Shown here piece by piece: positions 8,834-43,568 of a stretch of 47,878 nt of DNA. The stretch covers positions 1 through 47,878 of the forward strand of contig JBAWYD010000003.1 of assembly GCA_037143735.1 (NCBI GenBank), given 5' to 3'. This DNA is from Deltaproteobacteria bacterium (lineage in GTDB: Bacteria; Desulfobacterota; Syntrophia; Syntrophales; UBA2185). The translations under genes and the position numbers were made by a program. The notes below the pieces were generated by a model. It did not search any database. It was not told the origin of the DNA and was given only the letters and a program-made list of their open reading frames with translations. Position 1 is the first letter of the stretch. Each line of letters starts with the position of its first letter.

Positions 8834-8909
<76 letters not shown>

Positions 8910-9106: not shown

Positions 9107-9144
9107 TAAAAAGGGGCAGACCGATTAAGGTCAGCCCCTTTTTT
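9107..9144. terminator. Bidirectional intrinsic terminator between tRNA-Leu and the thioesterase gene
   Basis: AAAAAGGGGCAGACC-gattaa-GGTCAGCCCCTTTTTT. Confidence 0.75.
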
Positions 9145-9571: not shown

Positions 9572-9667
9572 CAAACGCCTCCTTTTAATGGTTTTTGAAT
9601 CCGCCATAATAAAACTAAATTTACCGGATAAGTCAAACGTAAAAATAGTTTGTTTCGATATAGAGAA

Positions 9668-19305: not shown

Positions 19306-20559
19306 TCAACCCAACGCCCCGTTCCAGACCTCAAAAGCGTAATCGCCGTTTTCGGAGGGTTTGAAAACCGACACATACGTCAGGACGTGCCAGCCGATAA
19401 ACTCCCTGTTTGCCGGGTCATAAGCAACTTTGTTCCATGTTTTCCGCCACGTGCCGGTGTTGAAGTATATCTTGTCGTGGGTCGCGCCGCTGCCTGTGGG
19501 TACCTGATCCAGGGGAATGATGAGGTGATCGTGGGTATGACCGTACAGGACATAGGACGCTTCGCGGCTGCGCACCCTGGGTTCGGCGAGGGCGTGTTTG
19601 GCGTATTCCTTGTCCCCCAAGCCGGGCATGAACCGCTTCAGCATATCCGCAACGTCTTCCAGAATGAATTTGGAGATACGGGAGGACAGGTGCAACGCCG
19701 CTTCCAGTTGATCGATGGCGTCGGGCCAGAAGGGGACGTCCATTTTTTTGATGAAGGGAATCTCGAAAAGCTCGTCAACGCACCGGGTCCATGTCTCTTC
19801 GATGATCCTCCGGACATGGGCGTTCTCCACACGGTTCATGACCATGAGAACCCAGGAAGGCGCGTCGAGGAGAGGACGGATGTTGTCCAGCTCCTTGAGA
19901 AGTTGTACGATGTCGTCCTGTTCCACCTTGGGAATCGGATTTGTTTCTTTCAGCCCCTTCCTCACTTCTTCGGGGAATTTGTTCAAAAGCTCGATGACGA
20001 CGGCATCGCCGACGGATGAATCATCGCGGTTTCCCCTGTGGTTGAACTTGTCGTATATATCCCCGTGGCGAGCGAAGGCGCTGTAATCCGGTTCGAACAG
20101 TTCGGTGGGAAACGGGTCATTGCCCCGGGTGATGCCGAGGGATCTTGCGACAATGTCCCGGCAGGACGCGTAGCGGTTGATCAGCCAGTCGTGGTTGCCG
20201 ATGACGTAGGTCGTCTGGAATCCGCCTGCCATTTGCCCAGTCAATTCCTCCAGCGAACGTACGTATTCAATGGATTTTTCGTTATTGCTGAGGATGCCCT
20301 GAAGAATTTTTGACACGACCGCTTCCTGTTCAGGACCGGCAGGGTCCCAGGGGCGTACGGTGCCGGTAAGCCATTCCGTGGAGCGGATGAGGTCGAAAAT
20401 ATCCCCGAGGAGCACCACCTTGATCTCCTGAACGGGATTGTTTTTCACACTCTCGATCAGCTTCTTCAGATTCTCGGAAAACACCCTGAAGGCCGTTGAC
20501 TTGATGGTTTCACCAGAAGTGCCGTCTGTAAAATGGACGTCGCTTAGAAATACCAGCAT
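19306..20559 (-). CDS. Calcineurin-like metallophosphoesterase
   Basis: SDVH, LGDIFD, GNHD, HGD, GHTH, NTGTW. Confidence 0.85.
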   Translation of the reverse strand: MLVFLSDVHFTDGTSGETIKSTAFRVFSENLKKLIESVKNNPVQEIKVVLLGDIFDLIRSTEWLTGTVRPWDPAGPEQEAVVSKILQGILSNNEKSIEYVRSLEELTGQMAGGFQTTYVIGNHDWLINRYASCRDIVARSLGITRGNDPFPTELFEPDYSAFARHGDIYDKFNHRGNRDDSSVGDAVVIELLNKFPEEVRKGLKETNPIPKVEQDDIVQLLKELDNIRPLLDAPSWVLMVMNRVENAHVRRIIEETWTRCVDELFEIPFIKKMDVPFWPDAIDQLEAALHLSSRISKFILEDVADMLKRFMPGLGDKEYAKHALAEPRVRSREASYVLYGHTHDHLIIPLDQVPTGSGATHDKIYFNTGTWRKTWNKVAYDPANREFIGWHVLTYVSVFKPSENGDYAFEVWNGALG

Positions 20560-24873: not shown

Positions 24874-27800
24874 CTATGGTTGGTCACTGTTTTTCTCAAG
24901 AAACTTTTTTATCCGGCCCGCAATGAACTCCGGAGGTTCACCCAGGAGAACGCCCGACGGGATGGCTTCCAGGTAACAGTCATCCCAGGGGAGATTGTAT
25001 TCATGAATGAGGTTCCGTATATCATTGAACTGATAGCCGAGGACCTCCTTTTTTTCTTTCACGGACAGGGATTCATTGAATTCCACGTGGATCAGGAGCA
25101 GCTTTCCGACACCGGCGCGATCACCCAGAAGGGGGATGATGACAATGGAAGCGCCGTCTAACTTCCCGCGGCCCACATAGACATGACCGGTGCTCACGAT
25201 GGATCGTTTGGTTCCCATGAGGAGGCTTGAGCCTTCCGTCCTCGATGTCATCGCAAGGGAAATGCCGCCCCTCTTTTCAATGGATATGGTCGAATCCTCC
25301 ACAGGATTTCCATAGGCGTCCAGATGATCAATGTCATAAACCGTATATCCATTGATCCTGGATATTGCGGGGTGGATCCTGTCGAGGGTCAGAATATTTT
25401 TCGCTACCAGGGACTTTACGGAAAATTCAAGTTCCCTGAAAAGATCAAAAACAATGCCTCTGAGCGGCTGTTCCTTTCTGCTCGTTCCCACCGTCACTGT
25501 CTTGGCCTGATGTCTGATGGCATCGATTGGTCTGGAGAGTTCGTCGATGGCATGACCGAGGGATATATCAAGGAGGTCGATGGGAGAGGTGAACCCGTTT
25601 TCTGTTTTAAAATCATGCCAGAAGTCATCGAGAGGCAGTTTTCCAGAAGCATACTTCAAAAGGAGAACCATGTCGGAAACAGTCTTCATCGTTGCCAGGG
25701 AGAAGCAATCGTTGATCATATGTTGATGGAACTTTATGGAGAAATCTCCGACCATTCGCTTGAAGCGCCTGTCTGCAATTCTTTCGTAGATGGAATATTT
25801 TTTCCTGTCATGTTCCATCATTTTCCGATTGAGACGACTTCTGAATGCGCGAAGGATTGAGGCGTCTCCGTCAATGCTGCTGGCGGCATAATAACTCCAG
25901 AGGTGTCCCGCCAGCGTGTTGAGAATAACCGGCAGGGGCATGGGCGCTCCGGGAATCCCGATGACCGCATCGGCGATGTTGTTGAACCGCTCTTCGCCCT
26001 CGTCGGCGAAAACAATGACGCCCGCTTTGTGGGCTTTAAAGATGGCCACGTCCTTGACAATGTCGGATATGACCGTTTCCGGATTTCCCGCCGCGCAGAC
26101 AATGATCAGGGGTTCCGCGGACAGGTCGATATGTTTCTTGTTTTCGATGATATCGGAGGATATGGTTTTGTAACACAGTTCACTGGCTTTAATCCTGATT
26201 TCATCCGCCGCCGCCTTGTTCGGTCCGCTTCCCACGATAGCCCAGTATCTCCTCTGTTTGGCCATTTGCGCGGCGGATTGTTTGATGTCATCCCGTTTTT
26301 CCAGGAGCCTTTCCATCATGCGAGGCGCCTGTTCCAGATTGTGAAGTTCCCCCGCAATGAAATCGTCGGAGGCCGTTTTGAGGATTTGGGCAATACACAG
26401 CGCCAGGATATGTCCGGCAACGATCTGGGAGTAGAATGCCTTGGTCGAGGCGACGGACATCTCAATATCTCTCCCGTCGCTCGTGTAAAAGACGCCGTTT
26501 GCCTTGCTTGTAATATCGGACTGTCTCCTGTTGACGACGGCGATAACGGTGGCGCCCCTCTCTGCCGACATGGCAACAGCGCGGTTTGTATCCGTCGTCG
26601 TTCCCGATTGGGTGATGGGAATAACCAGTGTGTCTTTCAGATCGTCCTCGAGGGCGAAACCGCTCAGTTCGGAGGCCACTTTCGCCTCGATACGGATTCG
26701 GGAGTCTTTTAAATACCGGGCAAAACCATCGGCGACGGCCATGCCGGCAACGGCGGCAGTGCCGTGACCGATGACCAGTATCCGCCGTATTTCACCCTCC
26801 ACGAGGGACTTTCTGAACTTTTCCGGTATGATATCGTGGCCTAAATTGAAGGAAACAGCGTACCCCCCCTCCGCGTTTACGGAAATGCGATACTTGCCTC
26901 TCAGGGTTTTCCTGACGGAAAGCATTGATTCGTGTATTTCCTTCATAAAGAAATGGGGGTAGTTCCCCCGGTCGATGTCGCGGGTCGTGATTTCCGCCCT
27001 GTGAATGTCATCTGTTCCGACAATTACGGGGGTTCCGTCATAACAGAGAACCGTTATCCCTGAAACGCCTCCCTGTGAATCTTCGTCGATAACGAATATC
27101 CGGCCTGTCGATTCATGCTTCTCGGGATCGGACGGCTTTTCTCCATCCATCCTGAGGAAAAAAGGAGTGGCTTCCACGATGCCGTAAAGCTCCGAGGCAA
27201 AAACGTATTGATCGGGGGCCAGCCCGACGTAGATGGACTGTCCGCTTCCCTTAAGGGCAAGAAAGGCCTTCCCCGGTTCGGCATTGCTGACCATGGCGAC
27301 GGCGTGAGAACCTTCGAAATCCGAAACGGCCATTCTGAACGCCTCCGTGAGATCGTGGCCTTCAAGGAGATATTGCTCGATTTGCAGGGGGATGATCTTC
27401 GTATCCGTCGTGATATCCGGCGCGATGAAAACCCCATTACCATCCAGATCGTTTCGAAGGCTTTGATAGTTGTCCACATCCCCATTCAGAACCACGCTGA
27501 TGAACCAGTTTCCCTCACCGTAATGGGGATAGTTTTTCATCGTGTTCCCGCTTACTGTATAATTGTTGACGGGATGGCTGTTTTCATCAGTAATGGAGCC
27601 GACAGAAGCCCAGCGCGTATGGCCTATGGATATCTGGGAAACTGTCTCGACCCTGGAAAATTCCCGAAAGACGCCATCCCCGGCAATGTCCTTCCTCAGC
27701 GCCCTTACATTCTGACCCAGTTCGCCGATGATGGAAGATATTTTATACACGAAAGACAGGGTATGTTTTCCGTCGCGGGGCGATGATGCAAAAAGAATGG

Positions 27801-28644
27801 AGCCGTTGATCAGATCTCCGGGACGGACTCTCTTCTGAAATTCATCATACAGACCTTTCTCCTGAAGGATTTTCATGGTTGATTCGAGAGCCACGTCGTC
27901 ATGCATGGTAAAGGATATCTGAATCCCGGCGGAATCTCTTCCCCGGACTTCGAGCCGGTCTATGTTGTTCAGGAGAAAATTGAGTTTTTTGTATTTTTTC
28001 AGTGTTTCAGTTGTGATGCTATCGGTTTGATCCAAACCCGAAAGCTGCATGATTTTTCCGACATTTTCGAGAATATCTTTCTCGATGCTCCAGATGATGT
28101 CCTTTATGAGGATGTGCCTGCTGTTGATGGTTTCCATATCGACTGTGGAGAAACTGCCGGCATTTTCTTCAAGGAGTTTTTCTTCCTCCGAAAAAAAACC
28201 CTTCATGTCTGCCGAAAGATCGGAGAGTTCCGCCGCTTTTCCCGCATCGAAAAAGATCTGCTGAAAGGGGATGTCTTCCTTGAGACGGAGGACGGTTTCC
28301 CCCATTTCTTCCAAGCCCTTCGCGCCATCCAGATAGTGACGGGAAGAGATCGTGCCGGTGAGCAATCGCGCGATGTTTTTCTGTCTCACTGCCTGAAACC
28401 GCCGGATCAGTTGATGAACAGGATCGAACGCGGCCGGCGCACTGTCCCTCTTGACGGCAATAACACCGGCAAAACCACAGAAAAGCACATCGGGCTGAAA
28501 GGGAAAAAGAATCACGGAACAGGCAGGGGCTTTACGGACATCGATCCCTGCATAGATCTTCCATTTTTTCAGAAAATGTATCGTGTTGACGAAATATGTT
28601 CGGAACTCAGCAAACATTTTTTTCCTGTGGCGCCTTTTCTTCAT
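24874..28644 (-). CDS. glmS: Greatly enlarged glutamine--fructose-6-phosphate aminotransferase (GlmS-like, 1256 aa)
   Basis: CGFAG at residue 56, RLEVRGRDSAG, GHTRWAS, NSHP, LNGDVDNY, TDT. SIS motifs TQSGTTTDT, VASTKAF, EIRIKASE, KKH, AKTVTVG. Lies between a glmU-like gene and pyrG/glmM. Confidence 0.82.
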   Translation of the reverse strand: MKKRRHRKKMFAEFRTYFVNTIHFLKKWKIYAGIDVRKAPACSVILFPFQPDVLFCGFAGVIAVKRDSAPAAFDPVHQLIRRFQAVRQKNIARLLTGTISSRHYLDGAKGLEEMGETVLRLKEDIPFQQIFFDAGKAAELSDLSADMKGFFSEEEKLLEENAGSFSTVDMETINSRHILIKDIIWSIEKDILENVGKIMQLSGLDQTDSITTETLKKYKKLNFLLNNIDRLEVRGRDSAGIQISFTMHDDVALESTMKILQEKGLYDEFQKRVRPGDLINGSILFASSPRDGKHTLSFVYKISSIIGELGQNVRALRKDIAGDGVFREFSRVETVSQISIGHTRWASVGSITDENSHPVNNYTVSGNTMKNYPHYGEGNWFISVVLNGDVDNYQSLRNDLDGNGVFIAPDITTDTKIIPLQIEQYLLEGHDLTEAFRMAVSDFEGSHAVAMVSNAEPGKAFLALKGSGQSIYVGLAPDQYVFASELYGIVEATPFFLRMDGEKPSDPEKHESTGRIFVIDEDSQGGVSGITVLCYDGTPVIVGTDDIHRAEITTRDIDRGNYPHFFMKEIHESMLSVRKTLRGKYRISVNAEGGYAVSFNLGHDIIPEKFRKSLVEGEIRRILVIGHGTAAVAGMAVADGFARYLKDSRIRIEAKVASELSGFALEDDLKDTLVIPITQSGTTTDTNRAVAMSAERGATVIAVVNRRQSDITSKANGVFYTSDGRDIEMSVASTKAFYSQIVAGHILALCIAQILKTASDDFIAGELHNLEQAPRMMERLLEKRDDIKQSAAQMAKQRRYWAIVGSGPNKAAADEIRIKASELCYKTISSDIIENKKHIDLSAEPLIIVCAAGNPETVISDIVKDVAIFKAHKAGVIVFADEGEERFNNIADAVIGIPGAPMPLPVILNTLAGHLWSYYAASSIDGDASILRAFRSRLNRKMMEHDRKKYSIYERIADRRFKRMVGDFSIKFHQHMINDCFSLATMKTVSDMVLLLKYASGKLPLDDFWHDFKTENGFTSPIDLLDISLGHAIDELSRPIDAIRHQAKTVTVGTSRKEQPLRGIVFDLFRELEFSVKSLVAKNILTLDRIHPAISRINGYTVYDIDHLDAYGNPVEDSTISIEKRGGISLAMTSRTEGSSLLMGTKRSIVSTGHVYVGRGKLDGASIVIIPLLGDRAGVGKLLLIHVEFNESLSVKEKKEVLGYQFNDIRNLIHEYNLPWDDCYLEAIPSGVLLGEPPEFIAGRIKKFLEKNSDQP

Positions 28645-29903
28645 TAAAACCTGAAGGATGGCAAATGGCTCAGAGAAGAGCCAGTGATGCCGTCAACAAT
28701 GTTCTGTAACCATTGTGTTCCGATGATTGATTCCCCTTTGTCCAGACTTTTAATGACCTGCAGATAGTTCTTCTCGCCCCTGTTGATGTTATGGTGAATT
28801 ATTCCTGTGAAATCATCGCGGTTTTTTTGATCGATCCTTGTTTCATGCCCGCTTTTGAAGCAGGTTTCAATTCCCGGCCAGTTTTCAAGAAATTCCTTTT
28901 CCTGTTTGAGGACGGTCTTTTTATATCGTATTTTTTCTCCCTGGGCTATGGACGCTTCCATTTTTTCGGAAAGGGCCCGAAAGCGGTTTATTCTTTCCCC
29001 GATCATGCTTTCGAGGGCGTCCATCATTCCCATGTACAATCCTTCTCCCATATCCTGAAGCCGGAAAAAAGGCTGCCGGATGTGAATATACCATTCTCTG
29101 AGAGCCAGAAGATTGGCAAGATAGGAGATGTTGTTATAGACCCGTCGGGTGACGTCCCCGTAAAAGCCCGTATGAAAGGTCTTGTCTCTTGCCGCATCGT
29201 TTTTTTCGATTAACAGTTTGCCGCCTTCCGGACAATCTTTGCGATAAACCGTTCCGGCCGCGATGACTGTTCCATACCCGATTCTGACGGGGCCGACGAG
29301 CCCCCCCTGACCTCCCAAAAAAATGGGAGACTGGTTGAGCATCACTCCTCCGGGCACATCACCGACGAGAGATGGCGTTGCCTTATCCTGATTCGGGGTA
29401 TAGTTGAAATGGATATAGGAGCTGCCAACTTCACTGTGATCTTTTCTGCTTGTGCCTCCCGCCATAAAACAGTCGCAAAAATTAATCAGGCTGCCCAGGG
29501 TGACAAAGGGGAAAAGGAGGGTTTGCTTCAATCCGACTGTATGAGCCGCGTTCGCTTGTTCTTCCAGGATGCATCCTTCCCGGACAAGGGCGCCGCTTGA
29601 CAGACTGGATCCTTCAAGGAAGACGGAGGATTTAAAAAAGCCGCCCTTCAATTCCACACGGGGTCCGAGCTGGCAATCAACGACAGTAACCGGTGATTCC
29701 TGGCCCAATCTTGACCCTTTGGAAATCAATGTTTTTTTACCATATATCCTGGTTCCTGAATGGATGATAACATCCTCACCGGAAATCCTGTCGGGATCAA
29801 CCTCATTTCCTATTTCAATAGAAAGGGGGTTGTGAATCCTCACGCCTTTGGCCATGAGTTGCCTGATATTTTCGGATAATCCGGTTGTATTTTCTTTTAT
29901 CAC
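28644..29903 (-). CDS. GlmU-like left-handed beta-helix (acetyltransferase-type) protein lacking the uridylyltransferase domain
   Basis: Begins LMAKGVRIHNP, like the start of the GlmU C-terminal domain. Hexapeptide-like repeats, HFNY, GPVRIGYGTVIAAGT. No LAAGxGTRM motif. Its stop overlaps the glmS-like start (TAATG). Confidence 0.7.
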   Translation of the reverse strand: MIKENTTGLSENIRQLMAKGVRIHNPLSIEIGNEVDPDRISGEDVIIHSGTRIYGKKTLISKGSRLGQESPVTVVDCQLGPRVELKGGFFKSSVFLEGSSLSSGALVREGCILEEQANAAHTVGLKQTLLFPFVTLGSLINFCDCFMAGGTSRKDHSEVGSSYIHFNYTPNQDKATPSLVGDVPGGVMLNQSPIFLGGQGGLVGPVRIGYGTVIAAGTVYRKDCPEGGKLLIEKNDAARDKTFHTGFYGDVTRRVYNNISYLANLLALREWYIHIRQPFFRLQDMGEGLYMGMMDALESMIGERINRFRALSEKMEASIAQGEKIRYKKTVLKQEKEFLENWPGIETCFKSGHETRIDQKNRDDFTGIIHHNINRGEKNYLQVIKSLDKGESIIGTQWLQNIVDGITGSSLSHLPSFRF

Positions 29904-33174: not shown

Positions 33175-34686
33175 GTGCGAAAGCTTACCGTCAAAACAAT
33201 AAAAATGAGTAAACGCAACCCGGTTGACATTTGCAGATTTTATGACTCTTCATCTCCATGCGGTTGTGAGTTGGAAAATATTATTGACTCATGTCATGAT
33301 GGTATTTTCATAACCGACGGGCAGGGGATCATCTTGAAGGTTAACAGCGGATGGGAGCGAATTTGCGGACTTCACCGAGAATTCATGTTAGGGAAATGCG
33401 CTCAGGATCTCGTAAATGAGAAGTTCTATACGGAATCTTCTGTAATGGCAGCAATAAGGGCGGAAAAACCGGTTACCATAATGCTGGAGATGACTAAAGG
33501 GGAGAAGGTCGGTCAGAAAATAATGGCAACCGCCATACCTGTATGGAACGAAAACGGAGAAATCAAACGAGTGGTTGCCAATATCAGAGATATAACGGAA
33601 ATACTTTATTTAAAAGAATTATTGGACAAAACCCAGCTGTTGAATGAATTATATGTCGCCGAAATTGAGCAGATGCGGCTTAACCAATTTACCAGTAACC
33701 ACGGCTTGATAGCTCGGAGCCCTTTAACGATACGTGTAATGGAAATGGTAGCGCGTGTCGCCAGTTTTGATGTGTTTGTTTTAATCACCGGCGAGTCTGG
33801 TGTCGGCAAGGAAGTGATTGCGAATGCTATTCACAAGCAAAGCCAGCGTTCAAAGGGGCCTCTCATCAAAGTGAACTGCGGAGCGATTCCTGAAAATCTG
33901 CTTGAATCTGAACTTTTCGGGTACAACTTCGGCGCCTTTACCGGCGCAAGAAAACAGGGGAAACCCGGCATGTTTGAACTCGCCGACAAAGGAACCCTGT
34001 TTTTAGACGAAATTGGGGATATTCCATATAACCTCCAGGGCAAGCTTTTAAGAGCTTTACAGGACCGTGAGATCATGCGGATTGGCGGCCTGAAGACCAC
34101 CCCTGTTGATGTGCGCATCATTGCTGCGACAAACAAGAATCTTGAAGAAATGGTAAATAACGGTTCTTTTCGTGATGACCTTTATTATCGCCTTAACGTT
34201 GTTTCAATTGAAATTCCCCCATTGCGTGAACGCAAAGAAGACATCCCTATCTTTGTTATGCACTTTCTGGAAAAGATGAACAAAAAACATCAACGCAACA
34301 AGCGCATTGCTTCAGAGGTTCTTGATAATTTCATGCTCTACTCCTGGCCTGGCAACGTACGTGAATTGGAGAATGTAATAGAGCGGTTGGTTATCATGAC
34401 CGAGGAGGATGAAGTCAACATGAAACATGTGCCAATTCAAATTAAAAGTCAGAATATTCCTGAAACGATGAACATTATCGATGATGTTGGATTTAAAACG
34501 GCAATTGAGCATACTGAAAAACAATTGCTTAAACAGGCACTCCTGAATCACCGGAGTACGAGAGAAATCGCAAAATCAATGAAAATCAATCAATCCACCG
34601 TAGTGCGCAAACTAAAGAAATATAACCTGTCTCCATCCTACAATGGTGAACCACACAAGCCACCAAACCAGGGACAACATGAATGA
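33175..34686 (+). CDS. sigma54-dependent transcriptional activator (PAS-AAA+-HTH)
   Basis: PAS (DGIFITDGQGIILKVN), GESGVGKE, ESELFG, intact GAFTGA, LFLDEIG, WPGNVRELEN, C-terminal HTH (STREIAKSMKINQSTVVRKL). Start GTG 33175 or ATG 33205. Confidence 0.95.
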   Translation: MRKLTVKTIKMSKRNPVDICRFYDSSSPCGCELENIIDSCHDGIFITDGQGIILKVNSGWERICGLHREFMLGKCAQDLVNEKFYTESSVMAAIRAEKPVTIMLEMTKGEKVGQKIMATAIPVWNENGEIKRVVANIRDITEILYLKELLDKTQLLNELYVAEIEQMRLNQFTSNHGLIARSPLTIRVMEMVARVASFDVFVLITGESGVGKEVIANAIHKQSQRSKGPLIKVNCGAIPENLLESELFGYNFGAFTGARKQGKPGMFELADKGTLFLDEIGDIPYNLQGKLLRALQDREIMRIGGLKTTPVDVRIIAATNKNLEEMVNNGSFRDDLYYRLNVVSIEIPPLRERKEDIPIFVMHFLEKMNKKHQRNKRIASEVLDNFMLYSWPGNVRELENVIERLVIMTEEDEVNMKHVPIQIKSQNIPETMNIIDDVGFKTAIEHTEKQLLKQALLNHRSTREIAKSMKINQSTVVRKLKKYNLSPSYNGEPHKPPNQGQHE

Positions 34687-34773: not shown

Positions 34774-35913
34774 TCACCTTAGAATACTGCCGGCGATAAC
34801 CATGCGCATTGCCTCACTCGTGCCTTCATAGATTTGGGTAATCTTCGCGTCCCGCATCAGGCGCTCCACCGGATATTCGCGGCTATAACCGTAGCCGCCA
34901 AATACCTGGACGGCATCGGTCGTAACGGACATAGCGGTATCAGAAGCAAACAGCTTGGCCATGGCCGCTTCCTTTGCATAAGGCAGATTATTCGACTTGT
35001 TATAAGCAGCTTTCAAGGTTAAAAGACGGGCGGCTTCAATTTTTGTAGCCATGTTGGCAAGCATAAAGCTGATAGCCTGCTGGCTCGCGATGGGTTTGCC
35101 GAACTGAATACGTTCTTTGGCATATTTCATAGCGGCATCCAGGGCGCCCTGAGCGATCCCGACCGCTTGAGCGGCGATACCGATGCGGCCGCCATCCAAA
35201 GCAGTCATGGCAATTTTAAATCCATCGCCTTCTTTACCCAGGAGGTTTTCGGCAGGAGTACGGGCATTTACCATAATGACTTCACGCTGCACCGATGCAC
35301 GAATGCCCATTTTGATTTCTTTTTTACCGAAGCTCAAGCCGGGCGAACCCTTCTCGAGAATTAATGCGCTCATCCCCTTAAGGCCGGCCTCTTTATTTGT
35401 TTTGGCAAAAATGAGTTCGACTTCCGCCTCCCCACCGTTCGTGTTGAAAACCTTGGTTCCATTCAGGATATAGAAATCGCCGTCTCTGACCGCAGTTGTC
35501 GATGCATTGCCTACGTCTGTGCCGGCATTGGGTTCTGTGAGACCAAATGCTCCCACCTTTGTGCCTTGTGCCAACGGTACCAGGTATTTTTGTTTTTGCT
35601 CTTCCGTACCGTATTTAAAGATCGGCCAGGAACACAGGGAAGTGTGCACCGACATACCGATAGAAGTCGATGCGTCCACACGGGAGATTTCCTCAACCGC
35701 AATGGCATAAGCGATGAAATCCATATCGCCTCCACCATACTTTTCAGGAAACGGCAAACCCATCAGGCCCAATTTTCCCATTTCATCAAATATCCCTCGG
35801 TCAAATAGCTCTTTTTCGTCACGCTCTACAATAGTTGTAGCTAATTTCTTCTCGACATATTCCCGCACCATTTTGCGGATGCCTTCATTTTCCGGTGTCA
35901 TAGTGAAATTCAT
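34774..35913 (-). CDS. Acyl-CoA dehydrogenase (butyryl-CoA dehydrogenase/CarC-like)
   Basis: [38 protein letters not shown], catalytic IYEGT. Confidence 0.93.
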
Positions 35914-35983
35914 ACATCACACTCCTATTAACAGTTTTTTTATCATTAATGTCTCGCCGCCTTAAGGACGACGATTGCACTTC

Positions 35984-37177
35984 TTATTGCAAAACTTCCC
36001 TTAACCTGGCAGTCAAAGCCGGCACCACCTCGTACACATCGCCGACTATTCCGTAGGTTGCTACTTTAAAGATAGGCGCATCAGGATCTGTATTGATTGC
36101 AATGATGACATCAGATGTTTGCATACCCGCTAAATGCTGAATAGCGCCGGATATGCCGCAAGCGATATAGATTTTGGGTGCTACCGTTTTTCCTGTTTGA
36201 CCGACTTGGTGCGGATAAGGCTTCCACCCGGCGTCAACCGCCGCCCGAGACGATCCGACCGTACCCTTTAATACTTGTGCCAGTTCCTCAACGATCCGGA
36301 ATCCTTCCGGCTTTCCAAGCCCCCGTCCGCCGGATACGATAATCTCGGCGTCTTCCAAATTGCATGAGAAAGAACAAACCTTAACAACATCGATCAGTTT
36401 TGTTCGAATGTCTTCCTCATTGATCGCCAATTCCTCTCTGATTATTTTACCTGTACGGCTGTAGTCCGGTTCAGGCTTCTTAAAGACCTTGGGCCTTACT
36501 GTACCCATTTGCGGACGGTGGTTTGGACAAAAAATAGTTGCCATAATATTGCCGCCAAAAGCAGGCCTTGTCCACGCTACCAACCGGGTTTCCATATCTA
36601 TGGCAAGACTCGTGCAGTCGGCGGTTAATCCCGTCTTCACCCTGGCGGCTATGCGAGGGCCTAAATCGCGGCCATCGTTGGTTGCACCCAATAATATGAC
36701 AGAAGGAAGATACTTTTTAATCAAGTGCGTAAAGACAATCGTATAGGCATCCGTAGTATAGTTTTTAAAAGCAGTACCTTCCGCCAAATATACGTTGTCG
36801 GCGCCGCTGGCAAACAGATCTTTGCTCATTTCCGCTACTTTATCACCAATGAGAACGGCAGACACTTCCTCGCCAAGCTCTTCAGCGAGTTTTCTTCCCT
36901 CGCCCAGAAGTTCCAGCGATACGTTGCGAATACGTCCATCCCGATGTTCGATAAATACCCATACCCCTTTGTAGGAGCTGATATCTTCCGGCTCTTCCGC
37001 TTTCTCCCGCTCCACGACGATGGCAGAAACGTTACAACTGCTTTCACAAGCGCCGCATGATGTACAATCATCAGTAATAACGGCCTTGTTATCTTTCATA
37101 ACAATTGCACCGTACGGACAACTCTCAATGCACATTTCACAACCAATGCATTCTTCCGATATAATCTTCACAGACAT
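35984..37177 (-). CDS. etfA: Electron transfer flavoprotein alpha subunit with N-terminal 2x[4Fe-4S] ferredoxin domain
   Basis: CIGCEMCIESCP and CTSCGACESSC, then GLTADCT, RPAFGGN, SGGRG, QVGQTGK, GISGAIQH. Confidence 0.95.
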   Translation of the reverse strand: MSVKIISEECIGCEMCIESCPYGAIVMKDNKAVITDDCTSCGACESSCNVSAIVVEREKAEEPEDISSYKGVWVFIEHRDGRIRNVSLELLGEGRKLAEELGEEVSAVLIGDKVAEMSKDLFASGADNVYLAEGTAFKNYTTDAYTIVFTHLIKKYLPSVILLGATNDGRDLGPRIAARVKTGLTADCTSLAIDMETRLVAWTRPAFGGNIMATIFCPNHRPQMGTVRPKVFKKPEPDYSRTGKIIREELAINEEDIRTKLIDVVKVCSFSCNLEDAEIIVSGGRGLGKPEGFRIVEELAQVLKGTVGSSRAAVDAGWKPYPHQVGQTGKTVAPKIYIACGISGAIQHLAGMQTSDVIIAINTDPDAPIFKVATYGIVGDVYEVVPALTARLREVLQ

Positions 37178-37197
37178 ATTTACTGCTTCCTCCTCGC

Positions 37198-37980
37198 CTA
37201 TATTATCTTGGCCTGCATCAACTTATCGACAAGCAAATCAACAGCGTCTTTGCTATCGCCCTGAATGATTTCACCTTGACCGCGCTGCTGCGGGGTAAAT
37301 ATTCGCCGAACCTGAGTAGCTGAACCATTAAGGCCTACGTCCATAGCATCAATGTCAAGGTCGGCAGCGGTCCATACGGGGATCTCACTACGGTAGGCTT
37401 TCGCCGTACCTTTTACCGTGGGAAGGCGGGGGTCGGTGGCCAGTTTGATGATAGTCACCACCAACGGCAGTTTGGCTTCTATTACATCATATCCCTCATC
37501 CTGTTCACGGTCGGCGATGACCCTTTCACCGTCAACTTCAATTTTGCTGACATAAGTAATCTGGCCAATACCAAGATGTTCCGCCATTTCCGGTCCAACC
37601 TGGGCCGTATCCCCGTCAATCGCCTGTTTACCGCAAATGATTAAATCGACGTTGCCCATTTTGCGCACTGCCGCAGATAATGTATAGGATGTAGCCAGGG
37701 TATCCCCACCCGCAAACGCTCTATCACTTAATAAAATGGCCTGATCGGCGCCCATGGCAATACATTCCTTCAGCGCATCCGCTGCCTGCGGCGGTCCCAT
37801 GCTTAATGCAGTAATCCTTCCTCCGTGTTTATCTTTAAGCTGTAGTGCCATTTCGAGAGCATATTTATCAAAAGGATTGACAATGCTCGGCACCCCTTCC
37901 CGAATCAACGTATTGGTATCAGGATCGATTTTTACTTCTGTTGTATCAGGTACCTGTTTGACACATACAACAATTTCCAT
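37198..37980 (-). CDS. etfB: Electron transfer flavoprotein beta subunit
   Basis: CVKQVPD, NPFD, SMGP, DRAFAGGDTLAT, GKQAIDGDTAQVGP. Confidence 0.95.
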   Translation of the reverse strand: MEIVVCVKQVPDTTEVKIDPDTNTLIREGVPSIVNPFDKYALEMALQLKDKHGGRITALSMGPPQAADALKECIAMGADQAILLSDRAFAGGDTLATSYTLSAAVRKMGNVDLIICGKQAIDGDTAQVGPEMAEHLGIGQITYVSKIEVDGERVIADREQDEGYDVIEAKLPLVVTIIKLATDPRLPTVKGTAKAYRSEIPVWTAADLDIDAMDVGLNGSATQVRRIFTPQQRGQGEIIQGDSKDAVDLLVDKLMQAKII

Positions 37981-38090
37981 AATAATTCTTACTCCCGGTT
38001 ATGTAATGATTAAGTGTTTTGTTGCAAGGATACCAGCCGTTTCAGATTCGTTAACATTCACGCTTCATGAAATAAAAGACATTGTTGTTA

Positions 38091-38152
38091 TAGGGGGTAT
38101 GGCATTTCTACAATCAACAAATACCCGGATGTAACTATTTACCATACCCCCA
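38091..38152. promoter_or_regulatory. Intercistronic inverted repeat between the MFS gene and etfB
   Basis: GGGGGTATGG...CCATACCCCC arms. Confidence 0.4.
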
Positions 38153-38177
38153 ATACGGATCATTAAGAATCCGGATC

Positions 38178-39509
38178 TTAAGCCGCTTTCTTGGTTATGA
38201 TTGGTTTCGAATCGGTTGTGAAATACATCGCCACTGCACCGACAATGAGTGATACCATACAGAACAAGAAGGTGGCCTGAAAGGCTGCCACAGGAAATTT
38301 ACCGTCAACCTTCCCGTAGAGATCGAGCACCACGCCCATCAATGCCTGATATAAAGCCCCGCCTATAAAGTACCATATATTCAGCATCCCGTTGGATGTC
38401 GCCATGAAACTGACCGGCTGGCCATCGGCTATGTGTGCGTAATTGGGCACATATGCTCCGCAGAAAAAGCCCATGGCAAATAACAATGGATAAAACATGT
38501 TAGGGGGGATCGATCCGGCGAAGAAAGCTAACGGAATCCAGGTCAAAACGTAGATAATCATGCCGTACAGGGAAGTCTTCCTGCGGGATTTCAGAATACG
38601 GTCGGAACACCAACCGGCCGCAAAACACCCTAACGCCATCCCGATAGGCCAGAACATGAGCATGTTGGCCGCCTGTTGCTTAGGCAAGCCGACTATCTGC
38701 TGCGCATAGGGAATGAACCAGAGCCCCTGGAATCCCATGACCGTACCGTAAATAACAAAAGCGTAGAGTGATATTAACCAATAGTTCTTCATCTTTAAGA
38801 GCTTAAAGAAATTATCCTTAAAGGTCTTCTTCTGATCTGCAGTCTGTGCCGGGTAGTAATCAATGCCGTCAATCTCCGAAACTGTAGGATAACCCATGTC
38901 GCCCGGTTTATTTCGGACGATTATGTAGTCGACAATAGATATGATGACCATAAAAGCGCCTAACCATAAGAATGAATTCCGCCATCCAACGATACCCACC
39001 AGAAACGCAAGCGGCGCGGATGCGAGTATGGCGCCGACATTGCCCCAGGTGAGCATCACACCGGTAAGCGTCGCTAATTCATTCGGCCGGAACCAGTTAT
39101 ACAGGATCTTCATACACGGCATCCATACAACCGCAACGCCCACACCCATTAAAAAGCGGCCTAATATGCACCAACCGAAGGTTGTCGCCAAACCAAAGAG
39201 CGCCGTGCCGATTGCCGCTATGATGAAAAAGGAACTCATTGAAAGTCTGGGGCCAATTTTATCGGCCAGGACTCCCGACGGGAATTGCATCGCCGCATAA
39301 GGATAAAAGTACATCGATGACAAGATACCGAGGGTGGTCGCCGACAGACCAAATTCCTTCATCAGCTCCGGTGCAACAACCGCTGGTGCAACACGGTCGA
39401 AATATACAAAAATATACGTTAACAAGAACATTCCATAAGTAACCCAACGATACGTAAGCATCTTCTTGGCTTTTGCAACATCAACTCCTGCGGCTACCTT
39501 TGCACTCAT
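38178..39509 (-). CDS. Major facilitator superfamily transporter (organic-anion type)
   Basis: About 12 TM helices, YFDRV in TM1, GVLADKIGPR motif A, GWCSDRILKSRR. Confidence 0.92.
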   Translation of the reverse strand: MSAKVAAGVDVAKAKKMLTYRWVTYGMFLLTYIFVYFDRVAPAVVAPELMKEFGLSATTLGILSSMYFYPYAAMQFPSGVLADKIGPRLSMSSFFIIAAIGTALFGLATTFGWCILGRFLMGVGVAVVWMPCMKILYNWFRPNELATLTGVMLTWGNVGAILASAPLAFLVGIVGWRNSFLWLGAFMVIISIVDYIIVRNKPGDMGYPTVSEIDGIDYYPAQTADQKKTFKDNFFKLLKMKNYWLISLYAFVIYGTVMGFQGLWFIPYAQQIVGLPKQQAANMLMFWPIGMALGCFAAGWCSDRILKSRRKTSLYGMIIYVLTWIPLAFFAGSIPPNMFYPLLFAMGFFCGAYVPNYAHIADGQPVSFMATSNGMLNIWYFIGGALYQALMGVVLDLYGKVDGKFPVAAFQATFLFCMVSLIVGAVAMYFTTDSKPIITKKAA

Positions 39510-39660
39510 ATAACTCTCCTCCTCATTAAATTTTTATATGCCTCTTTGCTGCAACTATTCTTTATCTCGGTTCTTTACTGACAAAAAAAATTAGAATCTT
39601 AACTGTGCCTGCCTTGAAAGATCTTTTTCCAGAAATTTGTACGTTTTTTCCTTAGTCGGC

Positions 39661-39683
39661 TGCCCCGCCCTGAGGGCGGGGCA
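39661..39683 (-). promoter_or_regulatory. Perfect GC-rich hairpin just downstream of the dehydratase-like gene
   Basis: TGCCCCGCCC-TGA-GGGCGGGGCA. No U-tract on the minus strand, so more likely a stabiliser or pause site than a full terminator. Confidence 0.55.
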
Positions 39684-39699
39684 ATACGCTCCAGCCTTA

Positions 39700-41169
39700 T
39701 TATTTTTTCTTCTTTTCCGGCTCCGGTATTTCTTCAGTAATACCGGCAATTTTTCTGGCATAATCAGCAAACTGGTCAACGGGAGTCAGAGATCTGACAA
39801 CCAATTTTGCACCATCGGGTGAACCGCCGCCGTGCATACATCCCGGAACGCCTGCGCCAAGGGTCAGCCACTCTGAAAGCCTTGCTGCGCGAGCCCTTGA
39901 TTCAGCGCTGAATTTATCGCAGGCTTTCAAAGCCGATTGAACCATGGCTCCTATTTTTTTGTCATTAAAGTCCTGCGCTGAAGGGAAACATCCTGTTTCA
40001 ACGACACCGCCTCCGATGTCCTGGCAGAGGCGCTTTGTTTCATAAGGAAGAGTCGCCACATGGACTTTATTGGCATGAGCGATCAGGGAATCTGAAACCC
40101 ACATACCGCCGGGCCCCTTTTTTCCTAAAGCCATCGCGCCAATTCCCATTGCGTATGTGGTCTCATTATTAACGGCCATTTCCACCATCTTGCCGGCAAA
40201 TGTGCTCGCCGCCAATCCATTCGTCCTCGCCATAAGCGCCGCAGCGCCAATCATGACGTCTCCCTGACCGGCGACGCAGGCGCCAATGCAAGCACGGTAG
40301 TTGGCTGTAAAATATTCTATAATTTTCCCGGAATACTTGAATTCCTTGCACATGAAAACTCTGTCATTGGGAACAAAGCAGTCTTTGAAAAACAGAAAAG
40401 CCTGGGTGATGCCCGTCTCCGGTATATCGAATCCGCCTTCCATTTCTCTGGTATCGCTTGGCCTGCGCGCCTCCACGATTGTAAGACCTTTTATATCCTT
40501 CGGTACAACGCAGCAAAGGGCGTAATCCTGATCCTCTTCCCTGTAACCGCCTCCCGGTAAAAGAAATATCTCGTTAGAGGCGGCCACACCGCAGATCATC
40601 GCTTTCATTCCGCTGATGACGATTCCATCTTCACGGACTTCTGTAATATGCAGATTGCTGTCCGGATTGGTCTGCTGTGATGGTCTCAGGCTGCGGTCCC
40701 CTTTGGCGTCTGTAAGAGCGCCCGCCACGACGAGACCATTTTGCTGAGAATAGATAATCCATTTTTTGAGACGCTCCTGGTATTTAGTTCCGTATTCCTT
40801 GTCCATAAGCGCCGTGATATTCCACATTACATTCTGGGCGTTCCATCCGACACACACGCCGCCGCTGCAACTTCCCGTAAAGCGGTACATCCACCTCTTC
40901 AGTTTTGAATTAGCCATAATGTCTTCCAGCGTTTCCATCATGGAAGTCCATCTGTGTATTCTTTCACCGCTTGTAAAAGTGGAGTTGGTAGTGAAATCCT
41001 GGGCATATTGCTGATCATGTGATGCGTCAAATGCCCGCGCATGGCTTTCGACAGCCCTCTTTGTCGCCGGATGAGTCGTAACATCCTCAATCAACTCCCC
41101 AAATTTGTAAATATTCGGCCTCATTGCCTTTAATGATTTTTTATAGTCTTCTCTCGTTTTCAGTGCCAT
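39700..41169 (-). CDS. 4-hydroxybutyryl-CoA dehydratase / 4-hydroxyphenylacetate-3-hydroxylase family flavoprotein (divergent)
   Basis: GALTDAKGDRS, DGIVISGMKA, FVPNDRVFM, QDIGGG, MHGGGSP. Cys motifs CSGGVC and RACIGAC. Confidence 0.85.
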   Translation of the reverse strand: MALKTREDYKKSLKAMRPNIYKFGELIEDVTTHPATKRAVESHARAFDASHDQQYAQDFTTNSTFTSGERIHRWTSMMETLEDIMANSKLKRWMYRFTGSCSGGVCVGWNAQNVMWNITALMDKEYGTKYQERLKKWIIYSQQNGLVVAGALTDAKGDRSLRPSQQTNPDSNLHITEVREDGIVISGMKAMICGVAASNEIFLLPGGGYREEDQDYALCCVVPKDIKGLTIVEARRPSDTREMEGGFDIPETGITQAFLFFKDCFVPNDRVFMCKEFKYSGKIIEYFTANYRACIGACVAGQGDVMIGAAALMARTNGLAASTFAGKMVEMAVNNETTYAMGIGAMALGKKGPGGMWVSDSLIAHANKVHVATLPYETKRLCQDIGGGVVETGCFPSAQDFNDKKIGAMVQSALKACDKFSAESRARAARLSEWLTLGAGVPGCMHGGGSPDGAKLVVRSLTPVDQFADYARKIAGITEEIPEPEKKKK

Positions 41170-41221
41170 TTTATCCTCCTGTTACCTTTATCCTTATGGT
41201 TTGAAAGTTCAGGTCCAATAT

Positions 41222-42799
41222 TCAGTTAATGTCTCGTAATATCTCTCTTTTGATGCCCATGGGCGTTTCATGCTGGAAAATTCGTGCATCCATCACTTTA
41301 AGGTTAGGAGCAACGAGAGGCTTGTATTCCATTTGAGCGAATATATCTTTTTCAATATCTACGCCGGGAGCAACCTCCGTCAGCATGACTCCTTCAGGTG
41401 TCAGTTCAAAAACGGCACGTTCCGTCACATAAACGATCTTTTGACCGCTTGTCTGCCCGTACTCACCGCTGAAGGTAATATGCTCCACTTTTTTGACTAA
41501 TTTTTTTATCTTGCCTTCTTTTACTATTTTCAGCTTTCCATCGCCGATCTCTAACTCAAGGCCGCTGGCAGTGAGTGTTCCACAGAACACTACTTTCTTT
41601 GCACTCTGTGAGATGTTAATAAAACCGCCCGCGCCTGCTATCCTCGGACCGAACTTACTTACGTTCACATTCCCGTACTGATCCATTTCCGCCATACCTA
41701 ACACAGCTACATCGAGCCCGCCGCCATCATAAAAATCAAACATAAGGGGATGGTCAATCAACGCTTCCGGATTCACTGCCGTTCCAAAATAGAGCTTGCC
41801 CAGAGGCACGCCGCCAATTGCTCCCGGTTCAACCGTCATTGTCATGAATTCGGTGAGTCCCTCTTCAGCCGAAACCACACCAACACCTTCCGGCATGCCG
41901 ATTCCAAGATTAACGACTGCGTTTGGCACAAGTTCCATAGCGCACCTTCGGCAAACTACTTTTCTTTCGCTCATCGGCAATACAGAAACCTGATTTAGAG
42001 GAACTCTTATTTCACCGCACAGGCTCGGATTGTACTGCTCTGCCATGGGAATCTGCCAGTGGTTCTCAGGCTTTGCAACGACGATCGCGTCCACAATTAT
42101 TTTTGGTATCTTTACCATCATCGGATGAAGCGATCCCGCTTTCGCCACCCTCTCCACCTGCACAATTACTTTACCCCCAGACCCCTTGGCAGCCAACGCC
42201 AGCAAGGCAAATTCCAGGCAAATAGCTTCTTTTTCAATGGATATGTTGCCATTTTCGTCTGCAGTGGTTCCGCGAATAATGGCAACATTTATCGGGATGG
42301 CCTTATAAAACAGGTATTCCTTGCCATCTATTTCCATTAAGCGGACATACTCTTCATGGCTGATGCTGTTTAGCTTTCCTCCGGTTTCTCTGGGATCCAC
42401 AAATGTTTTCAGGCCGATATGTGTAATGATCCCCGGCTTCTTGCCGGCAGTGGCTCTCCATACATGGAGAATTACACCCTGGGGGATATTGTATGCCTCT
42501 ATTTTGTTAGCAACAGCCAACTTGATCATATCCGGCTGCAATGCCCAGTGACCTGAAACGACCTTCTTTAACAGCCCTTCTTTTGCCCAGCGATTCAGTC
42601 CCCAGTTTGATTTCCCGTCATTCTGGCTTGCGCCAAATGTAAGCGTTAAATTATTTGGTTCTCCAGTTTCTAAAAAACTCTTTTCAACCGCCTTTGACAT
42701 TTCTTCCGGATGGCCCATCCCAACAAATCCAGAAGTTGCAACCGTGTCTCCATTTTTGATCAACTTAACCGCTTCTTCTGCAGACATGAATTTTGCCAC
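41222..42799 (-). CDS. Family I acyl-CoA:acetate CoA-transferase (Pct/YdiF type)
   Basis: IGLKTFVDPR, RGTTADENGN, VNLGIGMPEG, catalytic Glu in TVEPGAIGG, FDFYDGGGLD, GAGGFINISQ, YVTERAVF. GTG start with GGAGG RBS. Confidence 0.93.
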   Translation of the reverse strand: MAKFMSAEEAVKLIKNGDTVATSGFVGMGHPEEMSKAVEKSFLETGEPNNLTLTFGASQNDGKSNWGLNRWAKEGLLKKVVSGHWALQPDMIKLAVANKIEAYNIPQGVILHVWRATAGKKPGIITHIGLKTFVDPRETGGKLNSISHEEYVRLMEIDGKEYLFYKAIPINVAIIRGTTADENGNISIEKEAICLEFALLALAAKGSGGKVIVQVERVAKAGSLHPMMVKIPKIIVDAIVVAKPENHWQIPMAEQYNPSLCGEIRVPLNQVSVLPMSERKVVCRRCAMELVPNAVVNLGIGMPEGVGVVSAEEGLTEFMTMTVEPGAIGGVPLGKLYFGTAVNPEALIDHPLMFDFYDGGGLDVAVLGMAEMDQYGNVNVSKFGPRIAGAGGFINISQSAKKVVFCGTLTASGLELEIGDGKLKIVKEGKIKKLVKKVEHITFSGEYGQTSGQKIVYVTERAVFELTPEGVMLTEVAPGVDIEKDIFAQMEYKPLVAPNLKVMDARIFQHETPMGIKREILRDIN

Positions 42800-42885
42800 G
42801 CCCCTACCTCCAACTGAATTTTGAAAATATTCGATCCGATTTATTTTTTTGCGTTGTTTCTCTGTGGTGGTTTACATGTTATGGG

Positions 42886-42900
42886 GCAATTTATATGCCA
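42886..42900 (-). promoter_or_regulatory. sigma54 (-24/-12) promoter of the island operon
   Basis: TGGCATATAAATTGC has exact GG-N10-GC spacing and lies ~90 bp upstream of the CoA-transferase start. Confidence 0.85.
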
Positions 42901-43278
42901 GTAGTACCAACACGGTGTAACGCGTGGTTGCCTGCAATATATGAGTGTACTTTAGTTAACGACCTGATAATCAGACATATATGTTTTATTTTTGATTTCG
43001 AGAGTTGGAATATTTTGAAAAGCCCCAGTGAAAGCAAGAGCTTCTGCATCATCAAACTTCCATGATGTCTACTTTTATATGTCGTTTACTATGGATCACT
43101 CAGCTTTAGAAATGGACATATAAATTCATAAAGAGTTGACGATTAAGCTTATAGAAAAAGTTTATCTCTAATAATATGGATCAATGCGGCAGGATCGACA
43201 ACTGTTAGCTTTTGAAATGATTTTAGACAATACAATAATCATAATAATTACTTGTCATAACTGTAACTGAAAACATTG

Positions 43279-43490: not shown

Positions 43491-43568
43491 GTCATTCCCG
43501 CGTAGGCGGGAATCCAGAGAGAATGTAAATGTTCAAAAAGACTGGATTCCCGTTTTCACGGGAATGAC
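43491..43568. repeat. REP/MITE-like palindromic element (two ATTCCC-N8-GGGAAT units in inverted arrangement)
   Basis: GTCATTCCCGCGTAGGCGGGAATCCAG, a ~24 nt spacer, then CTGGATTCCCGTTTTCACGGGAATGAC. Confidence 0.8.

Follow-up and report, generated by a model that had tools for sequence, protein, structure and literature searches.

The acrylate pathway of Clostridium propionicum comprises Pct, lactoyl-CoA dehydratase and the acryloyl-CoA reductase AcrABC, and the Had/Fld operons represent other reductive branches for 2-hydroxyacids. In the abfD-abfT-abfH pathway of Clostridium aminobutyricum for 4-aminobutyrate and 4-hydroxybutyrate, the product of the 4-hydroxybutyryl-coenzyme A (CoA) dehydratase/vinylacetyl-CoA isomerase AbfD is passed on to a crotonyl-CoA-reducing pair of Bcd and electron-transferring flavoprotein (Etf). 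We analysed a 47,878-nt stretch of contig JBAWYD010000003.1 from a deltaproteobacterium of the order Syntrophales (hereafter the window), where six co-directional genes on the minus strand, from 42799 to 34774, encode in this order a CoA-transferase, an AbfD-family protein, a major facilitator superfamily (MFS) transporter, EtfB, a ferredoxin-EtfA and an acyl-CoA dehydrogenase (ACAD). We regard it as an evenly balanced proposition that these genes constitute a substrate-inducible catabolic operon for one small carboxylic acid, which is transcribed from a single sigma54 promoter under a PAS-domain activator of its own and works through the steps proposed below. The AbfD-family protein, here called the paralogue, has lost the residues assumed to be catalytic in AbfD.

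In its operon logic of CoA-transferase, dehydratase, ACAD and EtfBA, as well as in its single-chain Pct/YdiF-like transferase, the locus resembles the reductive 2-hydroxyacid branches. The best NCBIfam equivalogs of its ACAD, EtfB and EtfA are AcrC, AcrB and AcrA, all scoring below their cut-offs (490 bits for the dehydrogenase against the AcrC model, with a cut-off of 640). Unlike these branches, the window has no HgdAB/LcdAB-type dehydratase and no ATP-dependent activator, and the paralogue occupies the dehydratase position. CarCDE of Acetobacterium woodii (6fah) shares the ferredoxin domain of EtfA (473 bits) as well as similarity of EtfB to CarD (272 bits) and of the ACAD to CarC (351 bits). 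CarA is a family III CoA-transferase, whereas the transferase of the window belongs to family I; moreover, the ACAD is nearer to butyryl-CoA dehydrogenases (478 bits to 4l1f), and the car operon has no AbfD-family member.

Two further systems are comparable. According to PMC8364193, Emergencia timonensis uses gamma-butyrobetaine by means of the bbuA-F cluster, in which CoA activation precedes a flavin-dependent elimination at C4 with crotonyl-CoA as product; there, BbuA is an ACAD-family protein with less than 10% identity to 4-hydroxybutyryl-CoA dehydratase. The BCCT transporter of this cluster is also found in three loci of the paralogue clade (L025, L065 and L123), but the bbu transferases belong to class III, and the carrier of the window is of the MFS anion type, not BCCT. 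Among the predicted sigma54 regulons of Clostridiales given in Table 1 of PMC6615313 are those of XcgR (cotY-gntT-bcd-etfAB) and of YctR. Like the window, they combine an enhancer-binding protein with a sigma54 promoter over an operon of transferase, transporter and Bcd/Etf. In contrast to it, they contain no AbfD paralogue, the abfD regulon of XanR being canonical, and they come from another phylum and have other activator sites. A search of the full-text literature, with subscription-only literature outside its scope, found no study of the paralogue clade. The predicted genes of the operon and its putative regulator are:

41222..42799, minus strand: Single-chain family I CoA-transferase of the YdiF/Pct type, 525 aa, with GGAGG ahead of its GTG start (PF01144; PDB 2ahu match)
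39700..41169, minus strand: AbfD-family protein of the FAD/[4Fe-4S] type, distinct clade, 489 aa (HpaB_N and HpaB; 1u8v match)
38178..39509, minus strand: MFS transporter, organic-anion type, 443 aa (PF07690)
37198..37980, minus strand: EtfB, bifurcating type (4kpu_B, CarD and 5ol2_B matches)
35984..37177, minus strand: EtfA with N-terminal 2x[4Fe-4S] ferredoxin domain, CarE-like (Fer4 at residues 3-59, ETF and ETF_alpha)
34774..35913, minus strand: acyl-CoA dehydrogenase/enoyl-CoA reductase, short-chain butyryl-CoA type (4l1f, 5ol2_C and 1buc matches)
33175..34686, plus strand: sigma54 enhancer-binding protein, PAS-AAA+-HTH, downstream of the operon and convergent with it (Sigma54_activat, AAA_lid_14, PAS and HTH_50 domains)

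Active site and clade of the AbfD paralogue

The paralogue matches PF11794 (249 bits) and PF03241 (138 bits) and aligns over residues 3-477 with AbfD (1u8v; 307 bits, E 1.5e-90); the archaeal homologue 6vjr scores 292 bits. Cys99, Cys103 and Cys299 of AbfD, which we take from the 1u8v literature to be cluster ligands, are kept as C101, C106 and C298, with one added residue turning CX3C into CX4C. His292, presumably the fourth, substrate-facing ligand of the AbfD cluster, is replaced by Tyr291. Glu257, Glu455, Tyr296, Thr190 and Lys300, which the same literature leads us to regard as the catalytic residues, are lost as well: Tyr296 is replaced by Ile295, Lys300 by Val299 and Glu257 by Gln256, the triplet His188-Gln189-Thr190 reads Met-Ile-Cys with Cys193 at the position of Thr190, and the four-residue YRTE loop that bears Glu455 is deleted.

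These changes are shared by the close relatives. In the 84 rows of at least 56% identity (the query, 80 locus proteins and P0103, P0121 and P0122), the three C-terminal positions are occupied by Tyr, Ile and Val and the Glu455 loop is absent throughout (84/84), while Glu257 is replaced by Gln in 83/84 and Thr190 by Cys in 82/84. Tyr at the His292 position was present in the window protein and in all 85 family rows; canonical representatives retain His. Even P0123, a relative with 46% identity, has the core of the paralogue signature. The canonical proteins P0126, P0127 and P0143 show every element of the AbfD signature, that at Glu455 included, and canonical P0137 retains the other positions and has a differing loop at Glu455. 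A search of 1.84 billion representatives returned relatives with 60, 53 and 46% identity, after which values for full-length proteins fell to at most 37%. Concordantly, the paralogue clade formed one group in a FastTree phylogeny of 84 rows (10/10 rows, SH-like support 100, stem 0.63), which adjoins the canonical group and lies outside it.

Four cysteines, C101, C106, C298 and C394, are invariant in an alignment of 51 sequences, the last one sitting in a two-residue insertion that is missing from AbfD; C193, C294 and C444 are nearly invariant. The cluster of the paralogue is probably bound by the four invariant cysteines. Judged from these positions, the paralogue does not use the acid/base and His-ligated-iron chemistry of AbfD, and it falls outside AbfD in its catalytic features, although fold and three cluster cysteines fit. 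The earlier note had assigned a dehydration or elimination to this AbfD-like enzyme, which is unsupported as stated given the loss of the six AbfD residues and the fusions of the clade to EtfA or ACAD.

Fusions of the paralogue with EtfA were found in P0122, P0129, P0273, P0274 and P0275, the latter three encoded on contigs that reach 171 kb and bear the labels Elusimicrobia and Eisenbacteria, and a fusion with ACAD in P0271. Together with the frequent EtfA-paralogue gene order, these fusions suggest that the paralogue sits on the Etf/dehydrogenase complex. Since the catalytic residues are lost and fusions to EtfA and ACAD occur, the paralogue may exchange electrons with Etf and not act as a redox-neutral dehydratase. 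A protein of another composition, P0272 (936 aa; 3 member sequences in its cluster), joins the paralogue to an O-acetylhomoserine sulfhydrylase/homocysteine synthase domain that scores 735 bits, above the cut-off of 726.

The main rival reading, unlikely though by no means negligible, is that the paralogue is no lyase at all and instead a second Etf-dependent oxidoreductase, in which electrons would flow from Etf through an all-cysteine [4Fe-4S] cluster and FAD to the acyl-CoA. Its reaction would be a net reduction or oxidation beyond the reach of ordinary ACADs, e.g. 1,4- or gamma,delta-reduction of a dienoyl-CoA, with the Bcd-type enzyme completing saturation. EtfA fusions in at least five protein clusters and the ACAD fusion in one speak for it, as do the loss of the His ligand with the gain of a fourth invariant cysteine and the replacement of polar catalytic residues by Met, Ile, Cys, Gln, Tyr, Ile and Val. 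A precedent is the 2,4-dienoyl-CoA reductase of E. coli, which uses a flavin and a [4Fe-4S] cluster. However, the paralogue has an AbfD/HpaB fold and no similarity to FadH-type reductases, no gene specific for dienoic acids is present, and the fused genes are operon neighbours (EtfA next to the AbfD-like gene), so that fusion need not mean electron transfer.

That the operon serves plain 4-hydroxybutyrate or 4-aminobutyrate (GABA)-derived fermentation, with the paralogue as a functional 4-hydroxybutyryl-CoA dehydratase of divergent active site, appears very unlikely. The full-length identity of about 40% to AbfD, the presence of Bcd/Etf for crotonyl-CoA reduction, the 4Hbt-type transferases adjoining the paralogue in Firmicutes loci and the database names, which read 4-hydroxybutyryl-CoA dehydratase, would fit such an operon. 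Nevertheless, 7/7 catalytic or ligand positions differ in the 84 close rows, save for one or two rows at two positions, and the window lacks 4-hydroxybutyrate dehydrogenase, succinate-semialdehyde dehydrogenase and an aminotransferase. The transferase is of the YdiF family and not of the AbfT/Cat2 type, and neither Fe-ADH nor aldehyde dehydrogenase is encoded in the operon, the search for these two being confined to the window.

In addition, a canonical AbfD with the full signature (59% identical to P0126) adjoins the paralogue cluster in four loci (L121:3187-4632, L126:4028-5473, L132:6667-8190 and L134:1295-2773), where it is divergent from the ACAD-EtfBA-paralogue cluster and has a thiolase nearby. 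The presence of both AbfD forms side by side argues for different functions within C4 metabolism. The residues, the transferase type and the lack of a 4-hydroxybutyrate dehydrogenase in the operon thus set the cluster apart from the characterised 4-hydroxybutyrate/GABA pathway, a match with which the earlier note had named as grounds for abandoning its proposal.

Gene content, conservation and transcription of the operon

All six genes were found on the minus strand as the earlier note had listed them, separated, in order along the operon, by 52, 190, 197, 20 and 70 nt. Its claim that crotonase, 3-hydroxyacyl-CoA dehydrogenase and thiolase are absent from the island also held: none of these domains was detected among the 41 window open reading frames scanned. 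Such genes are encoded elsewhere in the genome, e.g. in an ACAD-thiolase-crotonase group on contig C116.

The CoA-transferase aligns over residues 4-509 with E. coli YdiF (2ahu; 451 bits). Its alpha and beta domains are fused, and it conserves, within TVE(T/P)G, the Glu at YdiF chain position 333, which we take to be the catalytic residue. The best NCBIfam matches of the MFS protein, the PgtP and D-galactonate subfamilies, lie so far below their cut-offs, and the names returned by an Atlas search are so generic, that no substrate can be read from them.

With 478 bits to 4l1f, 463 bits to 5ol2_C and 439 bits to 1buc, the dehydrogenase closely resembles butyryl-CoA dehydrogenases, including that of the solved bifurcating complex, and in the alignment to 4l1f it retains the IYEGT motif, whose Glu is presumably the catalytic base. 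EtfB scores 276 bits to 4kpu_B, 272 bits to CarD (6fah_B) and 259 bits to 5ol2_B, as opposed to about 100 bits to non-bifurcating Etfs; for EtfA and EtfB together the latter scores range from 100 to 178 bits. The ferredoxin-EtfA matches CarE (6fah_A) over its full length including the ferredoxin domain (residues 1-393, 473 bits) and 4kpu_A with 371 bits. Dehydrogenase and Etf would thus be of the ordinary bifurcating short-chain enoyl-CoA reductase kind (Bcd/EtfAB, CarCDE), an activity that we infer from these similarities. The Etf-linked reduction of an enoyl-CoA put forward earlier is thereby supported, the nearest solved relatives being bifurcating Bcd/EtfAB and CarCDE.

A neighbourhood survey of the AbfD-like protein found the gene set conserved as a unit, as the earlier proposal demanded. 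The order CoA-transferase, AbfD-like protein, MFS, EtfB, ferredoxin-EtfA, ACAD, with the convergent activator, recurs in 8/8 Syntrophales loci of sufficient length. Syntrophobacterales loci are arranged as activator, CoA-transferase, AbfD-like protein, ACAD, (EtfBA) and MFS. Across the clade we counted neighbours in loci flanked on either side by 3 kb or more (51 genome and 17 metagenome loci), requiring ACAD and Etf to lie on the same strand within 6 kb. ACAD was found near the paralogue in 38/51 genome loci and EtfB plus EtfA in 27/51; a YdiF-type transferase accompanied it in 23/51, an orthologue of the MFS protein in 19/51 and a sigma54 activator in 16/51. For the metagenome loci, the counts were 10/17 both for ACAD and for EtfB plus EtfA.

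The six genes are likely co-transcribed. Terminator-like and sigma70-like sites were no more frequent across the operon region than in shuffled sequences, and Rfam searches revealed no riboswitch within the operon, their sole find being a tRNA at 8837-8909. None of the RNA runs searched contains the strain of the window. Contigs of 90-99% relatives from metatranscriptome runs X18-X20 overlap parts of all six genes, including a 293-nt X19 contig that extends from the 3' end of the AbfD-like gene into the spacer preceding the MFS gene; these contigs prove neither co-transcription nor expression in the window organism. Two other RNA runs had next to no content.

The sigma54 promoter and candidate activator sites

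A -24 GG/-12 GC promoter and a gene for an enhancer-binding protein are present at the locus, and the genome contains rpoN, as befits a sigma54-dependent operon. The following candidate regulatory elements were located upstream of the transferase gene:

42886..42900, minus strand: sigma54 -24/-12 promoter, TGGCATATAAATTGC (strict motif, position kept in 24/24 upstream regions)
43066..43084, plus strand: candidate distal activator site TGTCTA-N6-TATGTCG, about 170 nt upstream of the promoter (perfect match)
42960..42977, minus strand: degenerate proximal copy of the activator motif, TGTCTGATTATCAGGTCG, a weak call (aligns with the proximal block of relatives)

The strict motif TGG[CT]A[CT]-N5-TTGC matches the 47.9 kb window a single time, and 87 nt separate this match from the GTG start of the transferase gene. 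Each of the 23 orthologous upstream regions (10 Syntrophales and 13 Syntrophobacterales loci) likewise contains it just once, at 82-142 nt from the transferase gene, which makes 24/24 with the window. A looser pattern allowing two mismatches matched 35 times in the window, compared with 40 matches expected by chance, and the case for the promoter therefore builds on position and conservation. This bears out the single sigma54 promoter that the earlier note had placed ahead of the CoA-transferase.

The alignment of Syntrophales upstream regions revealed, besides the promoter, a conserved ribosome-binding site and GTG start, the start region of the transferase gene being conserved as well, and two more blocks, which are inverted copies of TGTCTA-N6-TATGTCG. 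In 9/10 Syntrophales relatives this motif is present in the 500 nt that precede the transferase gene, with two inverted copies in 8/10. No site of the 2.56 Mb assembly other than 43066-43084 of the window matches it with one mismatch or fewer, and the proximal copy at 42960-42977 fails a scan with two mismatches. With N7 spacing the motif gave chance matches only, N6 being the correct spacing.

Sites of this motif are concentrated in upstream DNA (17 in 11.5 kb) as compared with the remaining sequence (8 in 441 kb), and 6 of these 8 fall just past the dehydrogenase gene of the same operon. We propose that the blocks are binding sites of the PAS activator, whose gene occupies the same position, convergent with the operon, in 8/8 complete Syntrophales loci (73-78% identity). 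The 13 Syntrophobacterales loci, whose activators are just 61-68% identical to that of the window, have no TGTCTA-N6-TATGTCG upstream of the transferase gene. Six Syntrophales relatives carry a third perfect copy between the operon end and the activator gene (L003:16868, L004:17126, L005:17014, L006:17056, L024:17132 and L037:14453), a region that holds none in the window.

Proposed pathway, substrate range and distribution

In the mechanism that we propose, the acid would be imported by the MFS protein and converted into its CoA ester by the YdiF/Pct-type transferase, for which, as in its family, an end-product CoA ester or acetyl-CoA could serve as donor. Homology, fusions and gene order suggest that the paralogue, as a non-canonical AbfD-family iron-sulfur flavoenzyme in contact with the Etf/dehydrogenase pair, would turn the ester into a short-chain, probably C4-C5, enoyl-CoA. 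By similarity to the solved bifurcating complexes, the Bcd-type enzyme and the CarDE-like Etf would reduce this enoyl-CoA with NADH, possibly yielding low-potential electrons. Part of the enoyl-CoA may be oxidised via the beta-oxidation genes elsewhere in the genome, resulting in a dismutation. The overall logic of import, CoA activation, elimination and Etf-linked reduction that the earlier note had outlined is hence plausible, with its elimination step by the AbfD-like enzyme unproven.

The leading substrate class is butyrate or valerate that bears a 4-hydroxy, 4-amino/onium or 2-hydroxy leaving group. A link to C4 compounds is provided by the butyryl-CoA-type ACAD and, as neighbours of the paralogue in other loci, by 4Hbt-type transferases (L082, L054 and L083) and canonical AbfD with thiolase (L121, L126, L132 and L134). 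5-Aminovalerate or 5-hydroxyvalerate is not favoured. The classical 5-hydroxyvaleryl-CoA dehydratase is a 42 kDa flavoprotein and not of AbfD size. The parts of PMC8473912 that we drew on, a paper on 5-aminovalerate and 5-hydroxyvalerate, name no genes.

Activation and uptake vary across the clade. For activation, Syntrophales and Syntrophobacterales loci have a YdiF-type enzyme. The Intestinimonas-type locus L082 (100% identical to P0103), Megasphaera cerevisiae (L054) and L083 encode a 4Hbt/Cat2-type transferase next to the paralogue; AMP ligases, PaaK-like ligases or ADP-forming synthetases take this role in other loci. According to Bui et al. 2015 (PMC4697335), the 4Hbt-clade transferases of Intestinimonas went undetected under both growth conditions used. 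The MFS carrier of the window is replaced by CitMHS_2 in rumen Bacteroidales, by a peptide/opine-type ABC system in marine loci and by BCCT in the three loci mentioned above. Intestinimonas and Desulfofundulus have a carrier of 454-478 aa with at least eight hydrophobic segments, which matches no Pfam model and is weakly similar to Xan_ur_permease. This membrane protein takes the place of MFS in the Firmicutes-type loci L161:483-1847, L083:5821-7191, L035:16393-17778 and L039:8971-10407.

Marine and sediment loci contain additional genes: a PF02574 homocysteine S-methyltransferase domain protein (L092, L107, L111, L121, L133 and L134), a cysteine-rich QueG/reductive-dehalogenase-like protein of 247-289 aa (L025:2613-3437 and relatives), an amidohydrolase and a TetR regulator. 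The first three of these extras, sometimes combined with BCCT, hint at a methylated onium or amide precursor.

Several points weigh against the mechanism in the form given above. All AbfD residues for proton abstraction and hydroxyl activation are lost, and conversion to an enoyl-CoA by the paralogue is therefore proposed by analogy only. C394 is inferred to be a cluster ligand solely from its conservation. Promoters that escaped detection could sit in the 190- and 197-nt gaps within the operon. The partnership with ACAD is frequent and not universal, as in 13/51 genome loci the 6 kb around the paralogue contain none. Finally, because activating enzymes and transporters differ across the clade, one common substrate is unlikely, and a class of related esters is to be expected instead.

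An operation mainly in the oxidative direction, as conceivable in a syntroph, seems quite unlikely; direction is a separate question, so this estimate overlaps with those for the other readings. An acyl-CoA would then be dehydrogenated, the CarDE-like Etf would confurcate these electrons with reduced ferredoxin onto NAD+, and the paralogue would prepare or isomerise the substrate for beta-oxidation. Bifurcating Etf complexes are reversible, the nearest relatives place the host in the Syntrophales, and beta-oxidation genes are available elsewhere in the genome. A CoA-recycling transferase and an operon devoid of crotonase, thiolase and 3-hydroxyacyl-CoA dehydrogenase nevertheless fit a reductive or dismutating branch better, and related modules exist in the fermenters Intestinimonas and Megasphaera.

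A bolder reading, which we consider unlikely, is that the clade represents a new kind of radical acyl-CoA enzyme within a bifurcating Etf/Bcd complex. In one version, the paralogue may be a C4 amine/onium lyase acting directly on esters of the 4-aminobutyryl-CoA or gamma-butyrobetainyl-CoA type; this would be the direct GABA route that PMC8364193 terms hypothetical. In the other, it may be a dehydratase whose all-cysteine cluster is charged by a low-potential electron from Etf bifurcation, replacing the ATP-driven activator of 2-hydroxyacyl-CoA dehydratases. If the latter were true, reduction of the product would power activation of the substrate.

The host is a strict anaerobe. Its genome assembly (96% complete, 262 contigs, 2.56 Mb) contains one AbfD-family gene and, at E 1e-10, no canonical AbfD. 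The closest relatives of this gene (89-92% identity) are found in metagenome-assembled genomes of Syntrophales/Syntrophaceae from fens, bogs and freshwater. Among sampled genomes, the gene was present in 12/21 of the same family (10/11 in one genus, 0/1 in the genus of the window) and absent from 19/19 of other families in the order. This patchy spread and the 70-76% identity of Firmicutes proteins to the window paralogue fit an accessory catabolic module.

Directly upstream of the operon, the close relatives L001-L008, L024 and L037 encode another ACAD, EtfB and EtfA (53, 32 and 33% identical) along with a MobA-like gene and a FixC-like flavoprotein, where the window has an ilvE-like gene. 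Just upstream of the latter, which lies at 43606, a 27-nt inverted repeat (43491-43568, 85% complementary), whose arms are the GC-rich hairpins ATTCCCGC...GCGGGAAT, looks like a REP-type element or terminator pair. Farther away, the window encodes a 1256 aa protein (24874-28644) with glutamine amidotransferase and SIS as its only recognised domains, which is flanked by open reading frames of 419 and 417 aa (28644-29903 and 19306-20559) lacking a Pfam match. The tRNA gene adjoins that of a small thioesterase (9143-9607) from the FlK family, which is fluoroacetyl-CoA-specific.

The clade extends over peat and freshwater syntrophs, marine sulfate reducers, rumen Bacteroidales, Anaerolineales and gut or food Firmicutes, and databases label thousands of its proteins 4-hydroxybutyryl-CoA dehydratase. 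Because the clade lacks the catalytic residues of AbfD, counts of markers for the 4-aminobutyrate/succinate route to butyrate, among which these paralogues may be included, could be inflated. The cultured carriers Intestinimonas butyriciproducens, Megasphaera cerevisiae DSM 20462, Desulfopila aestuarii DSM 18488, Desulfofundulus thermosubterraneus DSM 16057 and Neomoorella sulfitireducens allow direct testing of the clade's reaction. Its tie to a bifurcating Etf makes the clade a test case for the wiring of flavin-based bifurcation to radical acyl-CoA chemistry, and its reaction may be a step of anaerobic carbon flow that is widespread and has gone unrecognised.

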